From the NCBI RefSeq assembly GCF_964213995.1, contig NC_135822.1:59830001-59894000 (forward strand): a stretch of DNA of 64,000 bases, given 5' to 3'. Origin of the DNA: Mustelus asterias (taxonomy: Eukaryota). The notes below the pieces were generated by a model. That model saw only the letters and a program-made list of their open reading frames with translations, did no database searches and was not told where the DNA came from. The translations under genes were made by a program, and so were the position numbers. Positions 2,292 to 64,000 of this stretch are shown piece by piece (position 1 is the first letter of the stretch; each line of letters opens with the position of its first letter).

Positions 2292-3362
2292 ATTTGTTAG
2301 TGTCATAACTAGGCTTACATTAACACTGCAATGAAGTTACTGTGAAAATCCCCTGGTGACCACACTGCGGCGCCTATTCGGGTACACTGAGGGAGAATTT
2401 AGCATGGTCAATGCTGAATCTGGTGAAAAAATGAACTGGTGTGGCGACAATAATCTCTCCCTCAATGTCAACAAAACGAAGGAGATTGTCGTCGACTTCA
2501 GGAAGCGTAAAAGAGAACATGCCCCTGTCTACGGGGATGAAGTAGAAAGGGTCGAGAGCTTCAAGTATTTAGGCGTCCAGATCACCAACAACCTGTCCTG
2601 GTCCCCCCATGCTGACACTATAGTTAAGAAAGCCCACCAATACCTCTACTTTCTCAGAAGACTAAGGAAATTTGGCATGTCAGCTACGACTCTCACCAAC
2701 TTTTACAGATGCGCCATAGAAAGCATTATTTCTGGTTGTATCACAGCTTGGAATGGCTCCTGCTCTGCTCAAGACCGCAAGATACTACAAAAGGCTGTGA
2801 ATGTAGCCCAATCCATCATGCAAACCAGCCTCTCATCCATTGACTCTGTCTACACTTCCCGCTGCCTCGGCAAAGCAGCCAGCATAATTAAGGACCCCAC
2901 GCAGACATTCTCTCTTCCACCTTCTTCCATCGGGAAAAAGATACAAAAGTCTGTGGTCATGTACCAACTGACTCAAGAACGGCTTCTTTCCTGCTGCCAT
3001 CAGACTTTTGAATGGCCCTATCTTGCATCAGGTTGATCTTTCTCTACACCCTAGCTATGAATGCAACACTACATTCTGCACTCTCTCATTTCCTTCTCTA
3101 TGAATGGTATGCTTTGCCTGTATAACGCGCAAGAAACAACACTTTTCACTGCATGCTAATACATGTGACAATAATAAATCAAATCAAATCAAACCTAATC
3201 AGCATGTCTTTCGGACTGTGGGAGGAAATCGAGCACCTGGAGGACACACACAGACAGGGGGAGAACAGGCAGACTACACACAGACAGTGACCCAAGACGG
3301 GAATCAAACCCGGGTCCCTGGTGCTGTGAGGCAGCAGTGCTAACCACTGTGCCACCATGCCT
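2292..3362 (-). mobile_element. tRNA-derived V-SINE (HE1-like, type-B tail), split by a Rex1 LINE
   Basis: Minus-strand head GGTGGCACAGTGGTTAGCACTGCTGCCTCACAG (box A) and V-domain at 3192-3362; tail at 2292-2412. Confidence 0.85.
2413..3191 (+). mobile_element. Rex1/Babar LINE 3' fragment (RT C-terminus)
   Basis: ORF 2356-3036 has TKEIVVDFRK, FKYLGVQITNNLSW, LYFLRRLRKFG and CITAW motifs; (AAATC)n tail. Confidence 0.85.
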
Positions 3363-4869: not shown

Positions 4870-6525
4870 CATTTGCTACCAAATAAACCTGTTGGACTTT
4901 AACCTGGTGTTGTTAAAACTCTTACTGTGTTTACCCCAGTCCAACGCCGGCATCTCCACATCCTCACTTTACTGACCCAGTTAGGTCATTAGACTGCTTT
5001 CTGCTCTGTCTATTGGAATATGGCATTAGATTCCTGCTTTTCACTTCTTGGGCAATCTCCAACCAGTCCTTTGTTCCTACCGCAGGTTTTTTCCTCCAGT
5101 TGCTGGGAAATACAGTAGTATACTCCTTCTAGCTCCCAACAAACCCCAATATCATTAACATACTTGAAAAATTCATTGACATACAACACATTCATGAAAT
5201 ACAGATCTCCTGAAACTGTAATTCCAGAAGTATGTGAAGCTTGCTCAATATATTTAATAAATTAGGGTTAACCTGTAAGTATGAAGGTGCCCTCAATTTG
5301 AATCATCCTGAGCTATATTAAAAGTATTTGAGGAAGATCTTTGACAGTGCAATATTCCCTCTGCAATATTACCTCTGCAGTCTTGGTATATTCAGTGTAA
5401 ATAAGTGCAAGTGTTGAGACCATTAACAATGCAAAGATAACCATTATTTTGCACTTGACAACAGTAAGACCACAAGAAGCTACAGTGATAATGGTGAATG
5501 AATGTAGGAATGTCAAGTGGCCTAACAATGTGTGATGATTAAACACTCACAAGAATTCTAATGAGGGTGTATATTTGCATTTATATTGGGGGAGGGGAGG
5601 TGGTGGGGAATTGAGCAAGCAATCCTCAGTGCAAACATTTGTATTGTGTATTGAGCTGATGCATGTTTGATTAGAAAATATGCATCTTTCAGTATGTCTT
5701 TTATTTGCATCAACTGGTAATAGTTGACCAGAGGTGTGAGCATATGTATGAGAGCTAGTCGTCCAAAGAGACTGTTCTTCATGAACATATAAAATAATTA
5801 TGGAGACCTTTGTTTGACAATTTCAGGATATAAGCCATATAAATATCCATTCAACTGTCTTCATTTCTGTCTACATTCTTACATAGAGCAATTTCCAGTG
5901 CAGTTCAGTTCAGCTTTGGCTGAGATTAAACTTTCCACGTCTCTTATACCACAGCCCTTAGCTAGAATTCTGTCACATGGATGTTGAAGAATTGACATCA
6001 CATTATCACACAGCATTTGCTGTTGCCTGGAGACAAACAACATAGATCAAAGAGCAACCCCACAATAGCATTTACAGTGAGTCAACACTGCTGTCGTGTT
6101 GGTATGAAAGCCATAACCTGAAGTAGTGATATTTTGCACCACTAAGATGGGGAAAGATGGTATCATTCAATTTTAAAGGATGTAATTTCGAAAACAAGTA
6201 ACAGGAGACATGCCAGATAGCACAATATCTCAATGTAGATCAATTTTTAATTTTTGGACTGAAATTCACTGCTTTTATTTTTGAAGTCTCACTTCTAACT
6301 CAGCTGAAATTAGAAGTAGAATATGATGAAACATTTCAGTTTGGAGTTGAATCAGTGTTGGATTTATAACAAAAATAACTGCAGTATAAATTAAACTTTT
6401 ATGTTTCTGGTTATATACATCAGAGAATTAGCAGACAATGCTTACAGTTGGATAGCAATCTACCCTCTTGGTTATTAGCTTCAGTAATTCCAATTCACCT
6501 GGCAGTACTGAACTGAATTTATCCC

Positions 6526-7087
6526 ATCTCAGACCCCATTTGGAATATTGTGAGCAGTTTTGGGTCCCATAGCTAAGAAAGGATGTGCTGGCCTTGAAGG
6601 GGGTCCAGAGGAGGTCCACAAGAATGATCCCAAGAATGAAGGATTTGTCATATGAGGAGCGGTTGAGGAGTCTGGGTCTGTACTTGATGGAGCTGAGAAG
6701 GATGAGGCGGGGTGGGGGGGATCTAATTGAAACTTACAGAATACTGAGAGGCCTCGATAGAGTGGATGTGGAGAGGATATTTCCACTCCTGGGAGAGACT
6801 AGAACTCGAAGGCACAACCTCAGAGTGAAGGGACACTCCTTTAAAACTGAGGTGGGGAGTAATTTCTTCAGCTAGGGGATACTGAATCTCTGGAACTCAT
6901 TGCACTCATTGGCTGTGGAGGCCAGGTTATTGAGTGTCTTTAAAACAGAGATAGATTGGTTCTTGATCAATAAGGGGATCAAGGGTATGGCGGGAAGGCA
7001 GGAAAATCGTATCAGCCATGATTGAATGGCGGAGCAGACTTGAAGGGTCGAATGGCCTAATTCTGCTCCGATAACTTATGATCTTAT
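6526..7087 (+). mobile_element. CR1 LINE 3' fragment
   Basis: LxGVQRR.TRMIP..SYEERL..LGLY..R..GDLIETY motifs; CR1 3' UTR ending in (CTTAT)-type repeats. Confidence 0.85.
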
Positions 7088-9469: not shown

Positions 9470-11229
9470 CAAAGCAGAGTATATAGGGAGCTAGGAAGCA
9501 ATCCTGAGATCACTACCGCAAAGGTAGTGATCTCAGGATTACGATCTGTGCCACATGCTAATCAGAGCAGAAACAGCAGGATACATAGGATGAATATGTG
9601 ACTGAAAAGATGGTGTGAGGGGGAGGTTTCAAATTCCTAGGGCACCGGTCCTGGGGAGGTGGGACTTGTACAAACTGGACGGGTTACACCTGGGGAGGAT
9701 CGGGACTGATGTCCTTGGGGGGGTTAATTGCTAGATTGGTTGGGGAGGGTTTAAACTAATATGGCAGGGAGATGGGAACCTTTGCAAGGATTCAGAGCAG
9801 GGGGAATTAAGAACAAGAGGAAAGACAGTAAGGAGAATAAGGAAAGTGATAGGCAGAGAAATCAAGGGCCAGAGTCAAATAAGGACTGAGTAAAAAAATA
9901 GTAGGAAAGGGAAAAATAATGTTAAACATGCCCACCTTAAGGTTTTGTACCTGAATGCTCAGAGCATTCGAAACAAAATGGATGAATTAGTTGCGCAGAT
10001 AGATGTAAAGGGGTATGATATAGTTAGCATTACGGATATGTGGCTTCAAGGTGAGCAATGATGGGAATTAGGAAGGACAGACGGAAAGGAAAAGGTGGTG
10101 GAGTTGCATTGTTTATTAAAGATGATATTGATACGATATTGAGGAAAGATATTAGCATAAATGATGTGGAATCTGTATGGGTTGAGTTAAGAAACAACAA
10201 GGGGCAAAAAACATTGGTGGGCATGGTAGACTTGATGGGCTGAGTGGCCTAATTCTATTCTTATGGCCTTATGGTATTATCTCCAAATTTGCAGATAATA
10301 CAAAGTAGGGTGCAAGGGTGAGCTGTGAGGAGGATGCAGAGATGCTTCAGTTTGATTTGGACAGGCTAAGTGTGTGGGCATCTGCATGGCAGATGCAGTA
10401 TAATGTAGATAAATGTGAGGCTATCCACTTTGGTAGCAATAATGGAAAACAGATTATTACTTGGATGGGTGTAAATTGAGAGAGGAGGGTACTCAATGAG
10501 ACCTTGGAGTCCTCATGCATCAGTCGCTGAAAGTAAGCCTGCAGGTACAGCAGGCAGTAAAGAAGCCAAATGGTATGTTGACCTTCATACAGAGAGGACT
10601 TAAGTATAGGGAAAGGGATGTTTTGCTTCAATTGTATACGACGTTGGTGAGGCCACACCTGAAGTATTGTGTGCAGTTTTGGTGTCCTTATGTGAGGAAG
10701 GGTGTTCTGGCTACAGAGGGGAAACAGCAAAGGTTTACCAGGCTGATTCCTGGGTTGGCAGGTCTGTCATATGAGGAGAGACTAAGTCAGTTAGGATTAT
10801 ATTCACTGGAGTTTAGAAGAGTGAGAGGGGATCTCATAGAAACTTATAAAATTCTAACAGGGTTAGACAGGGTAGATTCAGAAAGAATGTTTCCAATGGT
10901 CGGGGGGAGGGGGGAAGAGCCCAGAACTAGAGGTCATAGTTTGAGGATAAGGGGTAAACCTTTTAGAACTGAGGTGAGGAGAAATTTCTTCATCAAGGGG
11001 GTGGTGAATGTGTGGAATTCACTACCACAGAATGTAATTGAGGCCATAACATTGTCTGATTCCAAGAAGAAATTAGATATAGCTCCTGGGGCTAAAGGGA
11101 TCAAGGGATATTGGAGGAAGGGGGGATCAGGATATTGAATTCGATGATCGGCCATGATCAGAATGAATGGCAGAGCAGGCTTGAAGGGCCGAATGACCTA
11201 CTCCTGCTTCTAATTTCTATGTTTCTATG
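9470..11229 (+). mobile_element. Degraded CR1 (third subfamily): ORF1 end, ORF2 start, internal deletion, RT C-terminus and 3' tail
   Basis: VVISGL, DGLHL and GEGLN* (stop 9757-9759); LKVLYLNAQSIR; GGGVALFIK; ISKFADNTK; (TTTCTATG)n tail. Confidence 0.85.
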
Positions 11230-17686: not shown

Positions 17687-20611
17687 CTAGACCAATCGTT
17701 TGTATCCCTCCATTCCCAGGCTGCTCATGTGACTATCCAGGTAAGTCTTAAACGATGTCAGCGTGCCTGCCTCCACCACCCTACTTGGCAGCGCATTCCA
17801 GGCCCCCACCACCCTCTGTGTAAAAAACGTCCCTCTGATGTCTGAGTTATACTTCGCCCCTCTCAGCTTGAGCCCGTGACCCCTCGTGATCGTCACCTCC
17901 GACCTGGGAAAAAGCTTCCCACTGTTCACCCTATCTATACCCTTCATAATCTTGTATACCTCTATTAGATCTCCCCTCATTCTCCGTCTTTCCAAGGAGA
18001 ACAACCCCAGTCTACCCAATCTCTCCTCATAGCTAAGACCCTCCATACCAGGCAACATCCTGGTAAACCTTCTCTGCACTCTCTCCAATGCCTCCACGTC
18101 CTTCTGGTAGTGCGGCGACCAGAACTGGACGCAGTACTCCAAATGTGGCCTAACCAGCGTTCTATACAGCTGCATCATCAGACTCCAGCTTTTATACTCT
18201 ATACCCCGTCCTATAAAGGCAAGCATACCATATGCCTTCTTCACCACCTTCTCCAACTGTGTTGCCACCTTCAAGGATTTGTGGACTTGCACACCTAGGT
18301 CCCTCTGTGTTTCTATACTCCTGATGACTCTGCCATTTATTGTATAACTCCTCCCTACATTATTTCTTCCAAAATGCATCACTTCGCATTTATCCGGATT
18401 AAATTCCATCTGCCACCTCTCTGCCCAATTTTCCAGCCTATCTATATCCTGCTGTATTGCCCGACAATGCTCTTCGCTATCCGCAATTCCAGCCATCTTC
18501 GTGTCATCCGCAAACTTGCTGATTACACCAGTTACACCTTCTTCCAAATCATTTATGTATATCACAAATAGCAGAGGTCCCAGTACAGAGCCCTGCGGAA
18601 CACCACTGGTCACAGACCTCCAGCCGGAAAAAGACCCTTCGACCACTACCCTCTGTCTCCTATGGCCAAGCCAGTTCTCCACCCATCGAGCCACTTCTCC
18701 TTGTATCCCATGAGCCTTAACCTTCTTAACCAACCTGCCATGTGGGACTTTGTCAAATGCCTTACTGAAATCCATATAGACGACATCCACGGCCCTTCCT
18801 TCATCAACCGTTTTTGTCACTTCCTCAAAAAACTCCACCAAATTTGTAAGGCACGACCTCCCTCTTACAAAACCATGCTGTCTGTCACTAATGAGATTGT
18901 TCCGTTCTAAATGCACATACATCCTGTCTCTAAGAATCCTCTCCAACAACTTCCCTACCACGGACGTCAAGCTCACCGGCCTATAATTTCCTGGGTTATC
19001 CCTGCTACTTTTCTTAAACAACGGGACCACATTCGCTATCCTCCAATCCTCAGGGACCTCACCCGTGTCCAAAGAAGCGACAAAGATTTCCGTCAGAGGC
19101 CCAGCAATTTCACCTCTCGTCTCCCTGAGCAGTCGAGGATAGATGCCATCAGGCCCTGGGGCTTTGTCAGTTTTAATGTTCCCTAAAAAACCTAACACTT
19201 CCTCTCTTGTAATGGAGATTTTCTCTAACGGGTCAACACCTCCCTCCGAGACACTCCCGGTTAACACGCCCCTCTCCTTCGTGAATACCGATGCAAAGTA
19301 TTCATTTAGGATCTCCCCTATTCCCTTGGGTTCTAAGCATAATTCCCCTCCTTTGTCCCTGAGAGGTCCGATTTTCTCCCTGACAACTCTTTTGTTCCTA
19401 ACGTATGAATAGAATGCCTTAGGATTCTCCTTAATCCTGTCTGCCAAGAACATCTCGTGACCTCTTTTTGCCCTCCTAACTCCCCGTTTGAGATCTTTCC
19501 TACTCTCTCTGTATTCCTCCAGAGCTCCATCTGTTTTTAGTTGCCTGGACTTAACGTACGCCTCCCTTTTCATTTTAATCAGATCCTCAATTTCCCTGGT
19601 TATCCACGGCTCTCGAATCCTACCTTTCCTATCTTTCCTTTTTACAGGCACATGCCTATCCTGCAGCCTTATCAATAGTTCCTTAAAAGACTCCCACATG
19701 CCAGACGCGGACTTACCCTCGAACATCCTCTCCCAATCAACATCCACCAATTCCTGCCTAATCCGGCTATAGTCAGCCTTCCCCCAATTTAGCACCCTGC
19801 CCGTAGGACAGCACTCATCCTTGTCCATTACTATCCTAAAGTTAACAGAGTTGTGGTCACTATTTGCCACATGTTCCCCTACCGAAACTTTGACGACCTG
19901 GCCGGGCTCATTTCCCAGAACTAGGTCCAGTATAGCCCCCTCTCTAGTCGGGCTATCTACATACTGTTCCAAAGAACCTTCCAGTACGCATTTTACAAAT
20001 TCCTCCCCGTCCGGTCCCCCAGCTCTAAGCACTTTCCAGTCTGTGCCAGGGAAATTAAAGTCCCCCACTACAACAACCCTATGTTTTCTGCACCTATCCA
20101 GAATCTCCTGACATATCCTTTCCTCCACTTCCCGTGGGCTGTTGGGTGGTCTGTAGTACACCCCCAGCATAGTGACTGCACCCTTCCTGTTTCTGAGTTC
20201 CACCCACAGCGACTCAGTACATGACCCCTCTAAGTTGTCTACCCTCTGCACCGCGGTAATATGCTCCTTAACTAATATCGCTACTCCCCCACCTTTTTTA
20301 GCCCCTCCTCTGTCTCGCCTAAAACACTTATACCCCGGAATATTCAGCTGCCAGTCCTGTCCTTCTTTTAACCAAGTTTCCGTCACCGCAACCACATCCA
20401 AATTCCGCACAAGCATTAAGGCCCTAAGTTCGTCTGTTTTATCCGTTACACTCCTCGCATTGAAGCAGATGCACTCCAGACCTCCAGGCCCAGTCAGGTC
20501 CTCCTCCTCCAGAGTGCTCCTCTTCTTAGCTAGCCTTGCCCTGGCCCCCAGCTCGACCCCAGCCTCAGTATTTACTGACCTCCTGTTTTGTTCCCCACCC
20601 CCCCTGCCACA
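17687..20611 (-). CDS. CR1 ORF2: AP-like endonuclease + reverse transcriptase (frame open from 20611; first ATG at 20416)
   Basis: LECICFNARS (upstream of the first ATG), VAVTETWL, GDFN, LDLVL, SDH, KAPGPDGI, NYRPVSLTS, DFSKAFD, GVPQGSVLGP, FADD. Confidence 0.93.
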   Translation of the reverse strand, partial: CGRGGGEQNRRSVNTEAGVELGARARLAKKRSTLEEEDLTGPGGLECICFNARSVTDKTDELRALMLVRNLDVVAVTETWLKEGQDWQLNIPGYKCFRRDRGGAKKGGGVAILVKEHITAVQRVDNLEGSCTESLWVELRNRKGAVTMLGVYYRPPNSPREVEERICQEILDRCRKHRVVVVGDFNFPGTDWKVLRAGGPDGEEFVKCVLEGSLEQYVDSPTREGAILDLVLGNEPGQVVKVSVGEHVANSDHNSVNFRIVMDKDECCPTGRVLNWGKADYSRIRQELVDVDWERMFEGKSASGMWESFKELLIRLQDRHVPVKRKDRKGRIREPWITREIEDLIKMKREAYVKSRQLKTDGALEEYRESRKDLKRGVRRAKRGHEMFLADRIKENPKAFYSYVRNKRVVREKIGPLRDKGGELCLEPKGIGEILNEYFASVFTKERGVLTGSVSEGGVDPLEKISITREEVLGFLGNIKTDKAPGPDGIYPRLLRETRGEIAGPLTEIFVASLDTGEVPEDWRIANVVPLFKKSSRDNPGNYRPVSLTSVVGKLLERILRDRMYVHLERNNLISDRQHGFVRGRSCLTNLVEFFEEVTKTVDEGRAVDVVYMDFSKAFDKVPHGRLVKKVKAHGIQGEVARWVENWLGHRRQRVVVEGSFSGWRSVTSGVPQGSVLGPLLFVIYINDLEEGVTGVISKFADDTKMAGIADSEEHCRAIQQDIDRLENWAERWQMEFNPDKCEVMHFGRNNVGRSYTINGRVIRSIETQRDLGVQVHKSLKVATQLEKVVKKAYGMLAFIGRGIEYKSWSLMMQLYRTLVRPHLEYCVQFWSPHYQKDVEALERVQRRFTRMLPGMEGLSYEERLGRLGLFSLERRRMRGDLIEVYKIMKGIDRVNSGKLFPRSEVTITRGHGLKLRGAKYNSDIRGTFFTQRVVGAWNALPSRVVEAGTLTSFKTYLDSHMSSLGMEGYKRLV

Positions 20612-23488: not shown

Positions 23489-23766
23489 TTATCCCCATAA
23501 CCCCATGCATTTACCCTAGCTAGTCCCCCAATCACTGAGGAGCAATTTAACATGGCCAATCCACCTAACCCGCACATCTTTGGACTGTGGGAGGAAACTG
23601 GAGCATTCCGAGGAAACCCACGCAGACATGGGGAGAATGTGCAAACTCCAAACAGTGGAGAGTGACAGTTGGTGTCTCACTGAGGGAGTGTTGCTCGGGC
23701 TGCAGTGGAGAGTGACAGTTGGGGAAGTGTGGGGAAGTTTTTTGTTTTCTTTTTTTCTTGCTGGTA

Positions 23767-24696
23767 ATGGCTTCAGGGATGGCAGTTCAGGCAGTATGCT
23801 GCATCTCCTGTGGGATGTATGTGGTGAGGAAATCCAGTAGTGTTTCAGGAGATTTTAGTTGTAAGAAGTGCATTAGATTGCAGCTTCTGGAGGAGCGTGT
23901 AAAGGAGCTGGAGGGGGAGGTAGAGGAACTCCGCATAATTCGGGAGGCGGAGGTGGAAGTTGATAGGAGTTATAGAGAAATAGTAACTCCTAGAAATGAG
24001 GCTTGGGTCAATGCCAGGAGGAGGGGTAAGAAGCAATCGGGAAGACAATCCCCTGGGGCGGTTCCCCTCCATAATAGGTTTTCGGTGCTGGAGGCTACAG
24101 TTGAGGAGGAATCAACTGAGCATAGAGAGCAGATCTCTGGGGGTGAGCCGAGTGAGAAAGCTCAGGTGGTTAGGGGCTGTAAAAGACTGGGCCTTGTGAT
24201 TGGGGACTCCACAATTAAGGAGACAGATAGGAGGGTCGGAACTAAAGGTAGGGACTCAGGGTTGGTGTGTTGCCTACCAGGGGCTGGGGTCCGGGATGTG
24301 TCTGACAGGGTATTCAGGACTCTTAGGGGGGAGGGAGATAAACCACAAGTTATTGTACATGTGGGGACACACGACATAGGGAGGATAGGGGAAGGGGATA
24401 TTAGGCAGGGATTTATGGAGTTGGGGTGGAAACTAAAGGCCAAGACTGACAGAGTGGTTATCTCTGGACTCTTGCCTGTACCACGGGATAGTTTAGAGAG
24501 GAATAGGGAGAGGGAAGGTTTGAATTCATGGCTGAGGGGATGGTGCAGGAGGGAGGGGTTCAGGTACTTAAGCAATTGGGGCTCGTACTGGGGAAGGTGT
24601 GACCTCTATGAGAAGGATGGTCTACACCTTAATCAGAAGGGGACCAATATCCTGGGGGGTAAATTTGCTAAGGCCATGCAGGGAGGTTTAAACTGA
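23767..24696 (+). CDS. CR1 ORF1: zinc finger, coiled coil, SGNH esterase
   Basis: CISC..CKKC, LEERVKELEGEVEEL, GDS, CLPGA, HVGTHD, DGLH; first ATG (MASG) at 23767. Confidence 0.92.
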   Translation: MASGMAVQAVCCISCGMYVVRKSSSVSGDFSCKKCIRLQLLEERVKELEGEVEELRIIREAEVEVDRSYREIVTPRNEAWVNARRRGKKQSGRQSPGAVPLHNRFSVLEATVEEESTEHREQISGGEPSEKAQVVRGCKRLGLVIGDSTIKETDRRVGTKGRDSGLVCCLPGAGVRDVSDRVFRTLRGEGDKPQVIVHVGTHDIGRIGEGDIRQGFMELGWKLKAKTDRVVISGLLPVPRDSLERNREREGLNSWLRGWCRREGFRYLSNWGSYWGRCDLYEKDGLHLNQKGTNILGGKFAKAMQGGLN

Positions 24697-27566
24697 TTCG
24701 GGGGGGGGGAGGGATCCTGAGTAGTGGGGCTGAAAGTGAGGGATGCATGGATGGGGACTGCAATGCACGGCATTGCAGAGGTGGGGTGGAGCAGGGTTTG
24801 AAATGTGTATACTTCAATGCCAGGAGTATTCGCAATAAAGTGGGTGAACTTGCAGCGTGGATCAGTACCTGGGACTTCGATGTTGTGGCTATTTCAGAGA
24901 CATGGATAGAGCAGGGGCAGGAATGGATGCTGCAGGTCCCGGGGTTCAAATGTTTTAGTCGAAGTAGGGAAGGAGGTAGAAGAGGGGGAGGGGTAGCATT
25001 ATTGGTCAGAGATTGTATCACAGTGTCAGAGAGGAGGTTTGATGAGGACTTATCTGTTGAGGTAGTATGGGCGGAGATTAGAAATAGGAGAGGAGAGGTC
25101 ACCCTGTTGGGAGTCTTTTATAGACCTCCTAAAAGTTCTAGAGAGGTTGAGGAAAGGATTGCGGAGTCAATCCTGCTTAGGAGTGAAAGTAATAGGGCAA
25201 TTGTTATGGGGGATTTTAACTTGACTAATATTGACTGGAATTGTTATAGCTCTAGCTCGTTAGAGGGGTCAGTTTTTGTTCAAAGCGTGCAGGAAGGTTT
25301 TTTGACTCAGTATGTAGACAGGCCAACTAGAGGTGAGGCTATATTGGATCTGGTGCTGGGAAATGAGCCAGACCAGGTGCTAGACTTGGAAGTTGGTGTG
25401 CATTTTGGTGATAGTGACCACAATTCGGTTACGTTCACCTTAGTGATGGAAAGGGATAGGCATGAACCTCGGGCCAATGGTTTTAGCTGGGGGAAGGGTA
25501 ATTATGAGGCTATTAGGAGAGAATTAGGAAACATAGGTTGGACTAGGAGATTACAGGGACTGGGAACGTCCGACATGTGGAGTTTTTTCAAGGAGCAGCT
25601 ACTGCGAGTCTGTGATAGGTATGTCCCTGTCAGGCAAGGAGGAATTGGTAGGGCTAGGGAACCGTGGTGCACCAAAAAAGTTTCTTTGTTGGTTAAAAAG
25701 AAAAAGGAGGCTTATGTTCGGATGAGACGTGAGCACTCGGGTAGTGCACTAGAAAGCTTTAGATTGGCTAAGAGGGAGTTGAAGAGCGAGCTTAGAAGGG
25801 CTAAAAGGGGACATGAGAAGACTTTGGCGGATAGGGTTAAAGAGAATCCTAAGGCGTTCTATAGGTATGTCAAGAACAGAAGGTTGGTTAGGGCAAGTTT
25901 AGGGCCAGTTATAGATGGCAGAGGGAAGTTATGTGTGGAACCGGAGGAGATTGGTGAAGCATTGAACCAATATTTCTCTTCGGTGTTCACGCAAGGGGAC
26001 ATGAATATAGCTGAGGAGGACACTGGGTTGCAAGGGAGTAGAATAGACAGTATTACAGTTGATAAGGAGGATGTGCAGGATATTCTGGAGGGTCTGAAAA
26101 TAGATAAATCCCCTGGTCCGGATGGGATTTATCCAAGGATTCTCTGGGAGGCAAGAGAAGTGATTGCAGAGCCTCTGGCTCTGATCTTCAGGTCGTCGTT
26201 GGCCTCTGGTATAGTACCAGAAGATTGGAGGTTAGCGAATGTTGTCCCATTGTTTAAGAAGGGGAACAGAGACTTCCCCGGGAATTATAGACCGGTGAGT
26301 CTCACTTCTGTTGTCGGCAAGATGTTGGAAAAAATTATAAGGGATAGGATTTATAGTTATTTGGAGAGTAATGAATTGATAGGTGATAGTCAGCATGGTT
26401 TTGTGGCAGGTAGGTCGTGCCTTACTAACCTTATTGAGTTTTTTGAGAAAGTGACCAAGGAGGTGGATGGGGGCAAGGCAGTGGACGTGGTATATATGGA
26501 TTTTAGTAAGGCGTTTGATAAGGTTCACCATGGTAGGCTTCTGCAGAAAATGCAGATGTATGGGATTGGGGGTGATCTAGGAAATTGGATCAGGAATTGG
26601 CTAGCGGATAGGAAACAGAGGGTGGTGGTTGATAGTAAATATTCATCATGGAGTGCGGTTACAAGTGGTGTACCTCAGGGATCTGTTTTGGGGCCACTGC
26701 TGTTTGTAATATTTATTAATGATCTGGATGAGGGTATAGTTGGGTGGATTAGCAAATTTGCTGATGACACCAAAGTCGGTGGTGTGGTAGACAGTGAGGA
26801 AGGGTGTCGTAGTTTGCAGGAAGACTTAGACAGGTTGCAAAGTTGGGCCGAGAGGTGGCGGATGGAGTTTAATGCGGAGAAGTGTGAGGTAATTCACTTT
26901 GGTAGGAATAACAGATGTGTTGAGTATAGGGCTAACGGGAGGACTTTGAATAGTGTGGAGGAGCAGAGGGATCTAGGTGTATGTGTGCATAGATCCCTGA
27001 AAGTTGGGAATCAAGTAGATAAGGTTGTTAAGAAGGCATATGGTGTCTTGGCGTTTATTGGTAGGGGGATTGAATTTAGGAGTCGTAGCGTTATGTTGCA
27101 ACTGTACACAACTCTGGTGCGGCCGCACTTGGAGTACTGTGTGCAGTTCTGGTCCCCACATTACAGGAAGGATGTGGAGGCTTTGGAGAGGGTGCAGAGG
27201 AGGTTTACCAGGATGTTGCCTGGTATGGAGGGGAGATCCTATGAGGAGAGGCTGAGGGATTTGGGATTGTTTTCGCTGGAAAGGCGGCGGCTAAGAGGGG
27301 ATCTTATTGAAACATATAAGATGATTAGAGGTTTAGATAGGGTGGATAGTGATAGCCTTTTTCCTCTGATGGAGAAATCCAGCACGAGGGGGCATGGCTT
27401 TAAATTGAGGGGGGGTAGTTATAGAACCGATGTCAGGGGTAGGTTCTTTACCCAGAGGGTGGTGAGGGATTGGAATGCCCTGCCAGCATCAGTAGTAAAT
27501 GCGCCTAGTTTGGGGGCGTTTAAGAGATCCGTAGATAGGTTCATGGACGAAAAGAAATTGGTTTAG
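24693..27566 (+). CDS. CR1 ORF2: endonuclease + RT (open in the -1 frame from the ORF1 end; first ATG at 24747)
   Basis: LKCVYFNARS, ISETW, GDFN, SDH, PGPDGI, YRPVSLTS, DFSKAFD, GVPQGS, FADD; no stop from 24672 to 27563. Confidence 0.93.
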   Translation: MIRGGGGILSSGAESEGCMDGDCNARHCRGGVEQGLKCVYFNARSIRNKVGELAAWISTWDFDVVAISETWIEQGQEWMLQVPGFKCFSRSREGGRRGGGVALLVRDCITVSERRFDEDLSVEVVWAEIRNRRGEVTLLGVFYRPPKSSREVEERIAESILLRSESNRAIVMGDFNLTNIDWNCYSSSSLEGSVFVQSVQEGFLTQYVDRPTRGEAILDLVLGNEPDQVLDLEVGVHFGDSDHNSVTFTLVMERDRHEPRANGFSWGKGNYEAIRRELGNIGWTRRLQGLGTSDMWSFFKEQLLRVCDRYVPVRQGGIGRAREPWCTKKVSLLVKKKKEAYVRMRREHSGSALESFRLAKRELKSELRRAKRGHEKTLADRVKENPKAFYRYVKNRRLVRASLGPVIDGRGKLCVEPEEIGEALNQYFSSVFTQGDMNIAEEDTGLQGSRIDSITVDKEDVQDILEGLKIDKSPGPDGIYPRILWEAREVIAEPLALIFRSSLASGIVPEDWRLANVVPLFKKGNRDFPGNYRPVSLTSVVGKMLEKIIRDRIYSYLESNELIGDSQHGFVAGRSCLTNLIEFFEKVTKEVDGGKAVDVVYMDFSKAFDKVHHGRLLQKMQMYGIGGDLGNWIRNWLADRKQRVVVDSKYSSWSAVTSGVPQGSVLGPLLFVIFINDLDEGIVGWISKFADDTKVGGVVDSEEGCRSLQEDLDRLQSWAERWRMEFNAEKCEVIHFGRNNRCVEYRANGRTLNSVEEQRDLGVCVHRSLKVGNQVDKVVKKAYGVLAFIGRGIEFRSRSVMLQLYTTLVRPHLEYCVQFWSPHYRKDVEALERVQRRFTRMLPGMEGRSYEERLRDLGLFSLERRRLRGDLIETYKMIRGLDRVDSDSLFPLMEKSSTRGHGFKLRGGSYRTDVRGRFFTQRVVRDWNALPASVVNAPSLGAFKRSVDRFMDEKKLV

Positions 27567-27949
27567 GTTGGAGGGTCACAGTTTTTTTTTAACTGGTCGG
27601 TGCAACATCGTGGGCCGAAGGGCCTGTTCTGCGCTGTAATGTTCTATGTTCTATGTTCTATGTTCCACACAGTCACCCAAACTGGGAATCAAATCCAGGC
27701 CCCTGGAGCTGTGAGGGAGCAGTGCTAACCACTGTACCACCGTGCCGCCCCTAATGGTTGTATATGAGCGAGAAGTGCCTTGAACAGTCATAGTAGGGTT
27801 TTGAGTATAATGTCCTGCTCAGGTATCAGCCATGGCAGAAGTCAAAACATGAATTACTGTAGTGGCTGCCTAATTCTTACATTCTACCACATTTACAATC
27901 ATTTGAGCAAGGAGATGCAGAAAATGTGTTTGGTTGTCAAGACCCTCGC

Positions 27950-42869: not shown

Positions 42870-43515
42870 CTGACAATTTGCCAATTTCTGGTTATTTACT
42901 TTGTTGATAAGAATAGAAAAATGGAACCTTTTTAAAAGGCATGGAACTTTCAAATGTTGATGCTCAGAGGAACTGGATACACTCATATGAGGAATAGAGA
43001 AAGTTGGCATATGGGTATGGCAAGCAATTAGGAAGATAGGTTGCATGATGGCCTTTAGTTCAAGGGAATTGGAAGACAAGAAGATGGAAGTCTTGCTTTA
43101 ATTGTACAGAGCTTTGGCGAGATGACACCTGAAGAACAGCGCAGTTTTTGTCTCTATATTTAAGGAAGGATAGATTGTATTGGATGCGATACAACAAATG
43201 TTGACTAGATTGCTTCGTGGGATGAGAGTTTTGTCATATGATAGGCTAAATAAATTGTGCTTATGCTCTGTGGAGTTTAGAGGAATGACAGGTAATCTCA
43301 TTGAAACATACAGGTTACTGAGGGACCTGACAGGGTAGAGGCCGTTCCTCCTGACTGGGCAAAAGAGCTCAGGGCCACAGTCTCAGGATAAGGGGTTGAT
43401 CATTTAAGACTGCAATGCAGAGAAACTTCTTGACTAAAAGGGTTGTGAATCTTTGGAATTCTCTCCCTTAGAGGGCTGTAAAAGCTACATTGTTATATCT
43501 ATTTAAAGCTGAAAT
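42870..43515 (+). mobile_element. Old CR1 RT C-terminal fragment (its 3' UTR resumes at ~45790-45897)
   Basis: LLYRALAR.HL, SYDRL..L.L.SVEFR, GNLIET and VVNLWNSLP remnants. Confidence 0.65.
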
Positions 43516-44280
43516 ACTTCACTTGTCTTAAGAAACCTTTAAGGTTCATTCATTTATCCTGCGACCAGGTCAAAAGATATATCACAGCTCTCTGGAGTTC
43601 ATTCTGATTTCTCTTCCATGTTCCAGCTCTTCCTCAAGGTACAAGATTTAATGGGGTCCTTTCATTAGCTTTTGGCTAAGTGACCATTCAATTTCTTTAC
43701 ACACCTCACAACTCTGGATTCTTCAGCTCAAGCACAGGCCTCCATGCGACTACTGAGCAGTGGCTTAAAATTTCTTTGATTTTCAACAGCTGGCTGCTAT
43801 GTTTCAAATGGCAACCAAGTTGGTTACTTCCAGAACTCTGAATGCAAACAGGTTAACTGCCTCTTATTGAGAGAATTAGTGTACATTTCTTCCTTTGGCT
43901 TAAATAAACCTGTGAGTCATTTTTCCCCCTTTCTAACCAACTCCCAAATACAGGTGATGTCAGGACCACAGATCTAGCATTACTATACGTTTGGTGTTGG
44001 TATGGGTTTATCTCTCAGCTTTCAGAGCTACAAGCTAGATAATACCAAAAGATGACACAGTCTCTTAGCTGCTCCTCTCTAGCCATCTTGCCTACTGAAT
44101 TCACAGAGATAATTCTAAGCAAAGAATTTCACTAAGCTCCACCCATCTCTATGACAATATGGCACATGACCCAGTCCTAAGCAGAAATGCAAATTAACTG
44201 CATTATAATTCAAAAACTTTCCTTAATTCTGGGAAACTACATGCATAACCTATCATTTACTGCAATAATGCATAAGTCAT

Positions 44281-52159: not shown

Positions 52160-52600
52160 ATTGGCCTTGGAGGGGCTGCAGCACAGATTCACCAGAGTGA
52201 CGCTGGTTCTAAAGGAGTTAAATAATGAGGACAGGTTATACAGAATAGGCGAGTGTTCCCTTGAGTATAGAAGATAAGGGTAATCTGATAGAGGTGTTGA
52301 AGATGATCAAAGGATTTGATAAGATATTCTCTTTTGGGAGAGTGCTAAACAATGGCACATAACCTTAAAATTAGAGGTAGGGAGTTCAACGGTGATGTCA
52401 GGAAGCACTTTTTCCACACACGGTTTGTGGAAATCTGAGCTTTCTCTCCCAACAAGCTGTATTTTTGTTGGGCAAGTTGGGAAGCAATGCAGATAGATGG
52501 CGTTAAAATCCAAATCAGCCATGCTTCAACAGAATGGTGGAACTGGCTCAAGGGAGTGAATGGCCTCCTCCTTGGCGTGTGTTCCTATTTGTTCTATATG
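52160..52600 (+). mobile_element. Old CR1 3' fragment
   Basis: LEGLQHRFTRV, GNLIEV remnants; GAATGGCCTCCTCCT tail. Confidence 0.65.
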
Positions 52601-58383: not shown

Positions 58384-59121
58384 CATAAGAACATAAGAAC
58401 ATAAGAAATAGGAGCAGGAGTAGGCCATCTAGCCCCTCGAGCCTGCCCCGCCATTCAATAAGATCATGGCTGATCTGACGTGGATCAGTACCACTTACCC
58501 GCCTGATCCCCATAACCCTTAATTCCCTTACCGATCAGGAATCCATCCATCCGCGCTTTAAACATATTCAGCGAGGTAGCCTCCACCACCTCAGTGGGCA
58601 GAGAATTCCAGAGATTCACCACCCTCTGGGAGAAGAAGTTCCTCCTCAACTCTGTCTTAAACCGACCCCCCTTTATTTTGAGGCTGTGTCCTCTAGTTTT
58701 AACTTCGTTACTAAGTGGAAAGAATCTCTCCGCCTCCACCCTATCCAGCCCCCGCATTATCTTATAAGTCTCCATAAGATCCCTCCTCATCCTTCTAAAC
58801 TCCAACGAGTACAAACCCAATCTCCTCAGCCTCTCCTCATAATCCAAACCCCTCATCTCCGGTATCAACCTGGTGAACCTTCTCTGCACTCCCTCCAATG
58901 CCAATATATCCTTCCTCATATAAGGGGACCAATACTGCACACAGTATTCCAGCTGCGGCCTCACCAATGCCCTGTACAGGTGCATCAAGACATCCCTGCT
59001 TTTATATTCTATCCCCCTCGCAATATAGGCCAACATCCCATTTGCCTTCTTGATCACCTGTTGTACCTGCAGACTGGGCTTTTGCGTCTCATGCACAAGG
59101 ACCCCCAGGTCCCTTTGCACG
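58384..59121 (-). mobile_element. Young 5'-truncated CR1 inside the Gypsy element
   Basis: Open 211-aa RT C-terminus (58485-59120); (GTTCTTAT)n tail. Confidence 0.9.
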
Positions 59122-61489
59122 GTCGCCTGCTTTTAGGTATTTCTCCCAGATGGTGTTGTTGTAAGCCTTTCCTCCCTCCCTCGGGAAGATCCGGCTCAGC
59201 CTGTTTATGGTGTCATCTGCGCATGAGCAACTCTGCTGGGGCTATTCCGGTAGTTGCATGGGGGTGGTCGTCCTGAAATTAAAGAGGAATCTGGACAGTT
59301 TGGTGTCCAAGGAGGCTGCGGGCTTTTAAAGTCTGGATCGCTCTTTCTGCCAGGCCGTTAGATGATAGGTGATATGTTGAATTCCATTCGACTTCATAAA
59401 ATAAGCAAATTCCTGGCTGGTAAAGGATGGTCCACTGTCAGAAACCAGCACCTCTGGGATCCCATGTGTCACAAAAGAGTTGTGAACTTTCTCCACTGTC
59501 ATTCTTATGTTTGATGAATTCGCCCTGTGTACGCTCATCCATTTTGAGTGAACATCTACCATTACAAGGAACGTTGAACTCATGAACGGACTGGCAGTTG
59601 ATGTGTAGCAAAGTTCACAGCCTTCCCAGCCATTCCCAAGGGCACAGAGGAGCTGCTGATGATAGCTTCTGCCCTTGTTGACACTTATCCACGAGCGAGG
59701 CTATGTCCGTAACCATTCCTGGCCATCAGACATAGCATCTTGCAAGCATTTTCATTTTTGTCACTCCTGGGTAGCCATAGTGAAGTTCGGCCAGGAATGG
59801 ACAGCGACCCTGGCTCGCGATGACAACTCTGGAGCCCATAGGCATATGCCATCTTCCATGGTCAGCTACTCTCTCCAGCTCCAGTATGGATGAAATGCGG
59901 GTTGTAATAACCTGTTTCCCCTGTCAATGGTAACTGTTTCAATTTCGTGAGGACTGGGTCTTTTTGCATCCACAGCTGAATATTATTTGCTGCCACTAGG
60001 AGAGTTTCCTAAAAGTTCATTGTCATCGCTGTCTCTTTCATTGGGGGTACCACTGTTGAGGTGTCTGCTAACAGTAGCCAACTCAAGGCACCTGCATTGG
60101 CTACTTGGCCTCCTGCACAGTGTTCCAATCAATAATTGTAGGTGGCCGGTAATAAAGCCCACTGGTGGATTTTTGCCTATGCTACTGGCGGCACCGGCTT
60201 GTCCTTCTTTAGCAGTCCGAGGCTTGTAGTCCATGATAATGACGAATTTTCACCTATTCAGGAATTTCTTAATATCACCGTCAACCTTTTTTTTTCAATG
60301 TGGGTGTATTTGCATTCCACAATAGCCAAGGTCTTAGAAGAATACGCAATTGGGCGTTCATTTCCATTTGGCCACCTGTGTGCCAATACCACTCCGATTC
60401 CATACGGGGACGCATCGCAGGTCAGTTGTACTTCTTTCTGAGATCGTAATGTGCCACAACATTTGTCAAGGAAAGTTATTGCTTTACTTTACTGAAAGCC
60501 AAGGATTGACTAGAAACCCACTCCCAAAGCTGAAGCTTTTTCAGTAGTTGGTGTAATGGGGCCAGGATGAAGGCAGGGTTGGGTATAAATTTCCCCTAAT
60601 AGGTTACCAATGCCAGAAATTATTTTAGTTCCAGGATGGATGTGGGAGCCTTTGATCGCCTGCACCTTGTCTTCCAAAGGGTGTAGACCAGATTTGTCAA
60701 CTCTGTTGTCAGATATGTCACTTGGGGGACCTGGGATACACATTTCTCCTTTCTTAGGCATATGCATGCCTTGGAAAGTCGACTTAGGACTTCTTCAACG
60801 TTCACTAGGTGTTCCAAATTTGTTTTTCCTGTTATGAGGACATCATCCAGGTAAATAGCAACCTGAGGTAGATCTTGTAAGATGTTCTCCATTGTTCACT
60901 AGAAAATTGCACAGGCTGACGATACTCCAAATGACAGTCTAGTGTATTGGTATATGCCTTTATGAGTATGAATGGTTGAATATCTCTGGGAGTTCTTGTC
61001 TAGCTGTAATTGTAAGTATGCGAGACTCATATCAAGTTTCGAAAAGGAGCATCCTCCTGCCAAATTCACATATAAGTCCTTGATCCAAGGGATCGGGTAT
61101 TTACCCAGCTGCGAGAAATGGTTTACTGTTGTTAATCCCTGGAAAGGCGGACTGAGACCAGTATGACCAGTGCTGCCCATTCCGCCAGTTGGACTGCTTT
61201 GATGGTCCCTTCCAGATTCCAGTTTTCCGTAAGGCAAATGATACTGGGTGGGCTTTGCAAAATCGCAGAATCGCTTCCTGGTCAACATGTAAAGTCGCCT
61301 TCGCTCCTTCGATAGTTGCTAGGCCTTCCTGGAAAACATCAGTGTATTTAAGCAGGACTTTTCAAAGGTGGCCATTCTCTACCTGAAAAATATTGAGCCA
61401 ATCGAGGTGGATCTTTCACAACCATTAAGCGTGGGCCTGAGTCTTCCACTACAATAATTGGTAACCGAACCCGTTGCCTTTCATAGAAA

Positions 61490-61562: not shown

Positions 61563-62644
61563 CTTTCATAGGAGACAGGGACAGCAGTTGTACCCACAAT
61601 TTGCAAAGGTTGCCTGTATAGTTTCTCAGCCTTGCTGAGGTCTTGGTTAACATTAAGGGTTGGCATCCAGGGCAAATTTTACAGAATACTGATTCTCCGA
61701 CCACCAATACTGCCGCACCCGTATTGATCTCCGTGAGTACCGGATGTCCATTTAACCATACATGTATCTTGATTGAGTCTGATTTGGACTTTGCTATCCA
61801 ATTTAATTACTCTAAATCAGATGTAGGTTGACCTTCCGGGCTGTGAACTCTCCTGGATACCAGCCTACATGTTGTTTTTCTAAATCTAGGTCGCGTAGGG
61901 CTCCTTTGCTGTTTTGATTCTGCATACTGGCAACCATTACAAAGCACAACCTGGTGGGATTCTGAAGGACTTGTGATTGTTTGGTTGCATTTTGGCTTTG
62001 CATTGGGGTTGAGCTGCAAGCAGACTTGGAATTACGTGTATCTGGATGTTTCCTGAGTGAGGCTATGTAATTGCCTGAGTTCAAGTGGTGGTCACCAAGC
62101 TCAGTTGAACTGGCATGGCTATCCACTTCCATTGGGATACCTTGCAATTCATATGCTCCACTTGCAGTGCATTCCAATGATACAGCCAGCTGTAATGCCT
62201 GTTTGAAGTCCAGTTGAGTTTCAGCTAATAGGCGTTTTTGAATAGTTACTTTATTAATCTCGCATACCAGATGGTCTCTAAGCATCTCATTAAGAGTTAA
62301 ATCAAATTCACATGCTTTTGCCAGTCGTCTTAACCTAGTTAAGAAATTCGTAACTGATTCTCCTGGCTCTCTGGCTGCCGAGTAAAGCCAACAATGTCTC
62401 AGAATCAGAGGAGGCTTGGGGTTGTAGTATTCTCTAACTAATCAATTCCTGAAAGGTTTTAGTATCCGATGCCTCAGGGAAAATTAAACTCTGAATGACA
62501 GCAAATGCTGAAGCCCAATAGGCAGTCAGGAGAATTTTCGTCTGCTATATTTTTGCCTGAAAAAGTAATGCAAGTGTCCCACATATTGGGCCAGTCCTCA
62601 ATGTCAGGGTCGACCAACTGTACCCTCCCAAATAAAGGCATGAT

Positions 62645-63037
62645 CATAAGACCATAAGACATAGGAGCGGAAGTAAGGCCATTCGGCCCATCGAGTCCAC
62701 TCCACCATTCAATCATGGTTGATTTCAAATTCCTCGAGAAATCAAGAATTTATCAATTTCTGTCTTGTAGACGCTCAACGTCTCAGCCTCCACAGCCCTC
62801 TGTGGCAATGAATTCCACAGACCTACCACTCTCTGGCTGAAGAAATTTCTCCTCATCTCTGTTCTAAAGTGACTCCCTTTTATTCTAAGGCTGTGCCCCC
62901 GCGTCCTAGTCTCCCCTGCTAATGGAAACAACTTCCCTACGTCCATCCTATCTAAGCCGTTCATTATCTTGTAAGTTTCTATTAGATCTCCCCTCAACCT
63001 CCTAAACTCCAATGAATATAATCCCACGATCCTCAGA
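62645..63037 (-). mobile_element. 5'-truncated CR1 inserted at the Gypsy gag start
   Basis: LYSLEFRRLRGDLIETYK; TSD CATGAT at 62639-62644 and 63038-63043. Confidence 0.85.
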
Positions 63038-63469
63038 CATGATGTAAAAGAATGGCTTACCACACTTAGGCTAATTGTTGCGAGAGAGTTCCTTCAGAAT
63101 CGTGCTTTACCTCATCGCCACTGAAATAACACCCATGAGGCCGATGTCCCTTCACCAAATCCAGATTTATTTACAATACTTCGTAAAACACAGACAGGTA
63201 CTTCCCGGTTTAGAATATACATCCTGAGTGCTGGCAACCCCAACACACTACATAATATATATCTCTGCAGGGCTCCCGGATTGGACAGCCTTAACTGCCT
63301 CAATCAGGGAGTTATTTTTCTATCAGGTCTTGTGGACCTCATTAAAGTCCTTATAGAAGCCACCCCACACTGCCAGGAAACCCACGGCAGGGGGGTGCGC
63401 CTGGACCAGAGAATCCTGCTGGAGAATGGCCGGAGAATTAAGCCATCCTGTCCACATCCACTCTGTCAG

Positions 63470-63785
63470 CAGCATGGTGGCAGAGTGGTTAGCACTGCTG
63501 CCTCACGTTACCAGGGACCGGGGTTTGATTCCTGGTTTGGGTCACTGTCTGTGCGGAGTCTGCACATTCTCCCTGTGTCTCCATGGGTTTCCTCTGGGTG
63601 CTCTGGTTTCCTCCCTCAGTCCAAAAGGTGTGCTAATTAGGTGCAATGGCCATGCTAAATTCTCCCTCAGCGTACCTAAACAGGTGCCGGAGTGTGGTGA
63701 CTAGGGAACCTTCACAGCCTTCATTGTAGTGTTAATGTAAGCCTACTTGTGACACGAATAAAATAAACTTCAAACTAAACTAAAA
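63470..63785 (+). mobile_element. V-SINE (type-B tail)
   Basis: Boxes A and B, V-domain, tail ..TGTGACACGAATAAATAAACTT(CAAACT/AAACT). Confidence 0.85.
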
Positions 63786-63789
63786 TGGC

Positions 63790-64000
63790 ATGCCCTGTAA
63801 GAATTTTATAAGTTTCAATTAGATCACCTCTCATTCTTGAAATCGAAAGAATACAGGCCTATTTTTCTCAATCTCTCTTCATAAGAAAACCCCACCATCC
63901 CAGGGATTAGTCTGGTGCACTTCTGTTGCACTCCCTCAATGTTAAGTATATCATTCCTTAGATAAAGTGACCAAAATTGTACAAAATACTCACGGTGTAG
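63790..64000 (-). mobile_element. Old CR1 fragment (probably continuous with 57530-57615 before the MITE, Gypsy and SINE insertions)
   Basis: Reverse complement gives VQFWS..L, EGVQQK.TRL.PG and RGDLIETYKIL. Confidence 0.65.

Follow-up and report, generated by a model that had tools for sequence, protein, structure and literature searches.

CR1 copies in the window and their ORF junction

The sequence analysed here is a 64,000-nucleotide stretch of the Mustelus asterias genome (contig NC_135822.1, positions 59,830,001 to 59,894,000, forward strand), referred to below as the window. It holds three junction-bearing copies of CR1-type long interspersed nuclear elements (LINEs): copy B, intact and on the plus strand, copy A on the minus strand and copy C, decayed and on the plus strand. 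Copy B is a full-length element at 23658–27665, its 5' edge being approximate and placed where sister copies start to align (~23658). [quoted passage not shown] At the N-terminus of its product, ORF1p, a CxxC...CxxC zinc finger and a leucine-zipper-like stretch can be read from the sequence. These are followed by an SGNH/GDSL esterase (Pfam Lipase_GDSL_2, aa 170–292, E 1.9e-7) whose 32.2 bits just miss the cut-off of 32.9; the ORF1p of copy A, with 46.4 bits, is over it. ORF2 carries an endonuclease (Exo_endo_phos, ~24810–25421) and a reverse transcriptase (RT; RVT_1, ~26259–26912), both located with Pfam, and is 45% identical over 916 aa to the full-length bird-type element L106. A stem-loop with short terminal repeats (27598–27665), without poly(A), closes the element. 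Copy B thus appears to have the make-up of a canonical vertebrate CR1, with an esterase ORF1, an apurinic/apyrimidinic endonuclease (APE) and RT in ORF2, a stem-loop/short-repeat 3' end and no poly(A). Published vertebrate CR1 elements likewise pair a zinc finger/leucine zipper and esterase ORF1 with an APE–RT ORF2, end in a stem-loop with short repeats and are abundant in sharks and rays (PMC13343379; PMC4120745, subgroup CR1_7; PMC3905857).

The first-pass annotation of the window had proposed that ORF1 and ORF2 of these elements are joined by a programmed −1 ribosomal frameshift. As it had described, the heptamer U_UUA_AAC of copy B (24687–24693) lies in ORF1 phase (GGT TTA AAC) and adjoins the stop codon TGA (24694–24696; TAG or TAA in other lineages). 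ORF2 occupies the −1 frame, which is open for 964 codons (24672–27566), starts five codons before the heptamer and is bounded upstream by a stop at 24669–24671. The same heptamer and a stop also close ORF1 in copy A (ORF1 21640–20612, heptamer 20621–20615, TAG to 20612, minus strand) and in copy C (heptamer 9750–9756, then TAA). Across both strands of the window, the heptamer plus a stop has no match besides these three, each at an ORF1 end; a first-order Markov model predicts 0.62 anywhere in the window and 5e-6 per given site. Behind the copy B stop stands a G-rich motif, GGGGG-RN-GGG (24704–24713, +11 to +20 after the heptamer), which overlaps a run of ten Gs (24700–24709) and is a candidate stimulator. 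Copy C retains the heptamer, stop and G motif (9750–9776) together with an endonuclease remnant in −1 phase. The implied −1 phase of copy A did not hold up: its −1 frame shuts after 18 codons, and a G run of seven (20598–20604), against six in most siblings, places its ORF2 (20611–17687, minus strand) in frame 0 after the stop. In the cluster to which copy A belongs, 8 of the 11 copies with a locatable endonuclease have it in −1.

The junction in the M. asterias genome

In the 3.68-Gb genome, an anchor of 30 bases that lies upstream of the copy B slip site had 2,498 exact matches. Thirty copies of this family B were fetched (L001–L030), and every one keeps the heptamer and TGA; ORF2 is in phase −1 in 22, 0 in 6 and +1 in 2. 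With 98.3–99.9% identity, the copies point to a young family.

For a wider view, we used a degenerate motif for the end of the esterase active site that does not include the slip site. It gave 13,090 genome matches (control pattern, 167), from which the first 100 listed, all on one contig, were taken as a sample and not as a genome-wide count. The heptamer was exact in 86, had one mismatch in 7 and was lacking in 7; in 73, an exact heptamer stands in phase with a stop behind it. An endonuclease start could be located in 81 copies, and its phase, which the annotation had expected to be non-random, was −1 in 61, 0 in 12 and +1 in 8, the exceptions being recurrent G-run indels or decayed copies. 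From heptamer to endonuclease the frame is open in 56 of the 61 −1 copies, and 33 of these 56 have no methionine in the interval. Two copy pairs, L194/L195 and L017/L018, 78 kb and 7 kb apart, have a deletion or single nucleotide polymorphism (SNP) in common, L194/L195 also a 3' flank; we read both as local duplications, not separate insertions.

The same ending in other vertebrates

The observation is real and wider than first noted, as shark and bird-type CR1 elements both carry the heptamer. Where a protein sequence extends to the C-terminus, its last two residues are LN in 27 of 29 ORF1p of shark/ray type and 74 of 85 of bird type, as they are in 58 of 100 cluster representatives. Named proteins with this ending come from a snake, lizards, turtles, an eel, a sturgeon and a chimaera. 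Bird-type CR1 DNA was taken from metagenome contigs; of its 72 loci, 36 extend as far as the site (22 exact, 9 with one mismatch, 5 worse), and the −1 frame reads FKL.xKGEG. on into the endonuclease. FKL also stands in the second frame of gene models from stingray, birds and turtle. Viral contigs contained no CR1 ORF1. The lineages of sharks and birds separated about 450 million years ago.

Three database entries deserve mention on their own account. One stingray gene model (P0031) has esterase and FKL...endonuclease in one frame, as a natural in-frame copy or through model correction. A protein named from Pseudomonas aeruginosa (P0010 or P0027) is 58% identical to copy B ORF1p and is likely host contamination, and a sawfish entry labelled 40S ribosomal protein S24 isoform X2 matches ORF1p across 97% of its length.

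Selection on the bases of the heptamer

The 125 site-bearing copies were grouped into 44 clusters at 80% identity, and the 14 clusters in which the last 62 codons of ORF1 are open were used for a codon test. The last leucine codon is TTA in all 14, with no parsimony steps, while TTA makes up 7 of the 94 leucine codons elsewhere in those 62 codons; the last asparagine codon is AAC in 13 and AAT in one. The free synonymous variation at Leu-Asn that the annotation had named as a check was thus not seen. The codon before the leucine ends in T in 14 of 14 clusters, even though it encodes G, D, S, T, A or C and its amino acid changes 7 times. On the same tree, 16 conserved control columns show 2–7 synonymous steps, and among controls only the two tryptophan columns have an equally fixed third base.

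Downstream of the heptamer, the linker to the endonuclease varies from 35 to 93 codons with the −1 phase kept. The other frames are closed by 2–9 stops each in all 11 representative open linkers of multi-copy clusters. The junction therefore appears to combine an in-phase X_XXY_YYZ heptamer, an open −1 frame and conservation at the nucleotide level beyond that of the peptide, and these data support its interpretation as a putative −1 frameshift site.

A G motif at a fixed spacer

The new element here is the G motif GGGGG-RN-GGG at a fixed spacer of exactly 10 nt behind the CR1 heptamer. In 30 of 44 cluster medoids (shark 21/29, bird 9/15), G fills at least 7 of the 8 positions that make up +11 to +15 and +18 to +20; shifting the pattern by +1 leaves 16, and any other shift at most 5. 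By the same threshold, the motif is present in 102 of 125 copies (background 0.17–0.4% elsewhere). Its glycine codons are GGG in 18/20 and 20/21 cases, compared with 63/195 downstream, in 22 hand-picked representatives. The motif ranks in the top 6% or better by G4Hunter in 20 of 21 representatives, and only two tiers of a G-quadruplex fit there.

The layout, an unstructured conserved motif at ~10 nt, looks like that of arteriviruses. [quoted passage not shown] The CR1 motif differs in being G-rich, not C-rich, the heptamer is another one, and only the −1 frame is open. G-quadruplexes, for their part, can stimulate −1 shifts and promote readthrough (PMC3919603).

Long-range pairing partners for the motif were considered and rejected. 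Searches put the best partners at inconsistent places. A proline-codon motif ~630 nt upstream shows no family specificity in its pairing (p=0.18 for self against cross in 13 clusters), and pairing with the 3' terminus is unsupported (p=0.93, 11 elements; rank in the top 26% in bird L106).

Alternative routes to ORF2

Several observations weigh against frameshifting. No conserved stem-loop or pseudoknot was detected (in 21 representatives picked by hand, folding z was ~0 at 40, 70 and 100 nt), so the canonical stimulatory structure 5–9 nt downstream was not found. In 8 of 30 family-B copies, and in copy A, ORF2 is out of the −1 phase through a change in G-run length; all eight family-B copies differ in the G10 run, and these changes look like homopolymer slips for which biology and assembly error are indistinguishable. 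By cluster, the leading phase is −1 in 20 of 29, 0 in 4 (one a 2:2 tie) and +1 in 5, and the clusters are related, hence such counts are not independent events. The off-phase clusters are mostly single decayed copies, and in multi-copy clusters −1 leads in 10 of 13, the others being one tie and two with a single decayed +1 copy. A methionine is present in most open copies of 8 of the 17 clusters with an open linker, family B among them. Elsewhere, lack of an AUG alone proves nothing, because in L1 the ORF2 AUG can be replaced by any sense codon (PMC1965478).

The last two points bear on termination–reinitiation, in which ribosomes would restart at ATG 24747–24749 or a non-AUG codon and yield a separate ORF2p. 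This is the known route for L1 (PMC1965478) and SART1 (PMC10275272), bicistronic LINE RNAs that face the same problem of reaching ORF2, there solved by restart after the stop and without a slippery heptamer. The ATG, which the annotation had singled out as a possible start, is indeed present in family B, 19 codons on and the only one between heptamer and endonuclease; a conserved counterpart in other lineages was not found. Linker methionines are scattered over codons 3, 4, 17, 20, 22, 25 and 45, and all open copies of four clusters (34, 33, 26 and 3) lack one. Reinitiation also leaves unexplained why silent positions before the stop are frozen, why the −1 phase is fixed and why the linker is free of stops from the heptamer on, and we consider it improbable.

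The conserved bases might instead serve another RNA or DNA signal (protein binding, packaging, splicing) or a double peptide constraint, with ORF2 expressed from a spliced or separately started RNA. In principle, LN and a stop in frame 0 together with FKL in −1 could by themselves fix the same bases, and the G motif also encodes G-x-G. The F-K of the −1 frame could be translated only from a start in the few codons open upstream of the heptamer, ~2 in most bird clusters and ~5 in most shark clusters, and no conserved start lies there; the F-K is therefore out of reach of a conserved upstream start. The G-x-G codons are GGG far over background. A splice signal fits poorly, since the stop varies among TAG, TAA and TGA, which leaves no constant AG acceptor, and the tract here, rich in G, is the reverse of a polypyrimidine one; any non-translational signal would need neither ORF1 phase nor a fixed distance to the stop. 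A slip site thus appears to be the best reading of the constraint, and a different signal or double constraint a very improbable one.

A joining of the ORFs by polymerase slippage in the U/A or G run, or by stop readthrough in the copies with ORF2 in frame 0 (6 of 30 in family B, and copy A), the latter open to promotion by G-quadruplexes (PMC3919603), is hardly credible, given that neither the stop codon nor its 3' context is constant, that only family B has the long G run and that G11 copies form no clade. A U3-A3 run is moreover too short for typical polymerase slippage. The idea that G11 copies are a separate active lineage was rejected: they are spread over different SNP haplotypes, and the G-run change therefore recurs and marks no lineage.

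A model for CR1 ORF2 expression

Taken together, the sequence evidence makes programmed −1 frameshifting very probably the means by which vertebrate CR1 elements with an esterase ORF1 produce their endonuclease–RT, as an ORF1–ORF2 fusion. Most ribosomes would terminate at the ORF1 stop and release the 309-aa ORF1p. A smaller share would pause with UUA-AAC occupied by tRNA-Leu and tRNA-Asn, and the two tRNAs would re-pair on UUU-AAA. The annotation had placed F-K at the junction of the fusion; under the standard model of tandem slippage the slipped ribosomes would instead read GGLN-LIRGG. The predicted product, a zinc finger–esterase–endonuclease–RT protein of 1,266 aa (309+957), agrees in length with the ~1,270 aa put forward earlier, and its production would depend on the proposed shift. 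The slip rate would then fix the ratio of ORF1p to ORF2p, as it does for Gag and Gag-Pol in retroviruses. The pause, the weakest step of the scheme, would likely come from the adjacent stop and the G motif, with a bound protein or a G-quadruplex of two tiers, not a pseudoknot, as its agent.

On mammalian ribosomes, few heptamers shift as readily as U_UUA_AAC (PMC5009743). The CR1 arrangement resembles that of the coronavirus infectious bronchitis virus (IBV) and of retroviral gag-pol: the heptamer is identical to that of IBV and in the right phase, and a structural ORF precedes a polymerase ORF in −1 (PMC5009743). CR1 differs from these sites in having no detected downstream pseudoknot or stem-loop. 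Unlike retroviruses, it is a non-LTR (non-long terminal repeat) retrotransposon without a protease, and the fusion would likely stay uncut. Nearer in kind are the APE-type non-LTR elements TRE5-A and TRE3-A of Dictyostelium, which 'require a -1 frameshift' for ORF2 (PMC5911963). They belong to another clade, have another ORF1 and are non-vertebrate, and the excerpted text of that source gives neither heptamer nor experiment.

In the excerpted text of the frameshifting review, HeT-A and TART are the only non-LTR elements mentioned (PMC5009743). The excerpts of three CR1 studies treat ORF1 and ORF2 as separate proteins and do not use the word 'frameshift' (PMC13343379, PMC4120745, PMC3905857), and in those of PMC11835228 it is used only for retroviruses. 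Our full-text literature search, which did not reach the CR1 papers of 1997–2003, found no description of a CR1 slip site. A turtle CR1 paper of 1997 reportedly described overlapping ORFs; a suggestion of frameshifting may already stand in it or in Repbase notes.

A broader proposal is tentative and, on balance, doubtful. CR1, the dominant retrotransposon of most vertebrates, may have kept a structure-free, protein-triggered −1 frameshift since before the shark–tetrapod split, in which either ORF1p itself or a host protein that binds G tracts would occupy GGGGG-RN-GGG, 10 nt after U_UUA_AAC, and set the amount of fusion; crustacean relatives might use G_GGA_AAC and A_AAA_AAC in its place. As to these relatives, remote esterase ORF1s near snow-crab proteins often end in QGN or SKN (P0236, P0242, P0248, P0287, P0325, P0327, P0263 and relatives), the residues that the two heptamers would encode. 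Many others of this crustacean-type group end differently (FFR, CRG, GFR). No DNA for the QGN/SKN proteins was found in viral contigs or in bacterial genomes, the latter giving 13 bacterial esterases only, and the use of sister heptamers is at present a lead only.

CR1-group elements account for 22–34% of the genomes of sharks and rays (PMC13343379), and in the chicken genome CR1 contributes 11.8% (PMC11835228); the excerpted text of such genome surveys does not address how CR1 produces ORF2p. If frameshifting is true, the active CR1 enzyme would be an ORF1–ORF2 fusion, and intactness would have to be judged across the junction: copy A seems intact when each ORF is taken singly, yet its phase is lost. 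Reporters built for CR1 would have to keep the native junction, and these LINEs could be open to host inhibitors of frameshifting. CR1 would also offer one −1 site in thousands of naturally occurring versions, with a candidate stimulator unlike a pseudoknot.

Other features of the window

The insertion of copy B is flanked on both sides by a near-repeat of ~9 bases, within sequence that we take to be SINE-like (short interspersed nuclear element). Copy C (9482–11078) has a large internal ORF2 deletion, ~aa 141–684 being gone. Fragments of 5'-truncated CR1 ORF2 lie at 6510–6974, 43000–43516, 52164–52429, 58536–59180 and 62743–63997. On the minus strand, a 209-codon frame at 61812–62441 had no Pfam hit and looks like a decayed LTR-retrotransposon gag. 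Finally, another LINE RT, which we assume to resemble Rex1/L2-type elements, is represented at 2335–3036 on the plus strand by its C-terminal part, where Pfam gives a match to ALKBH8_N.

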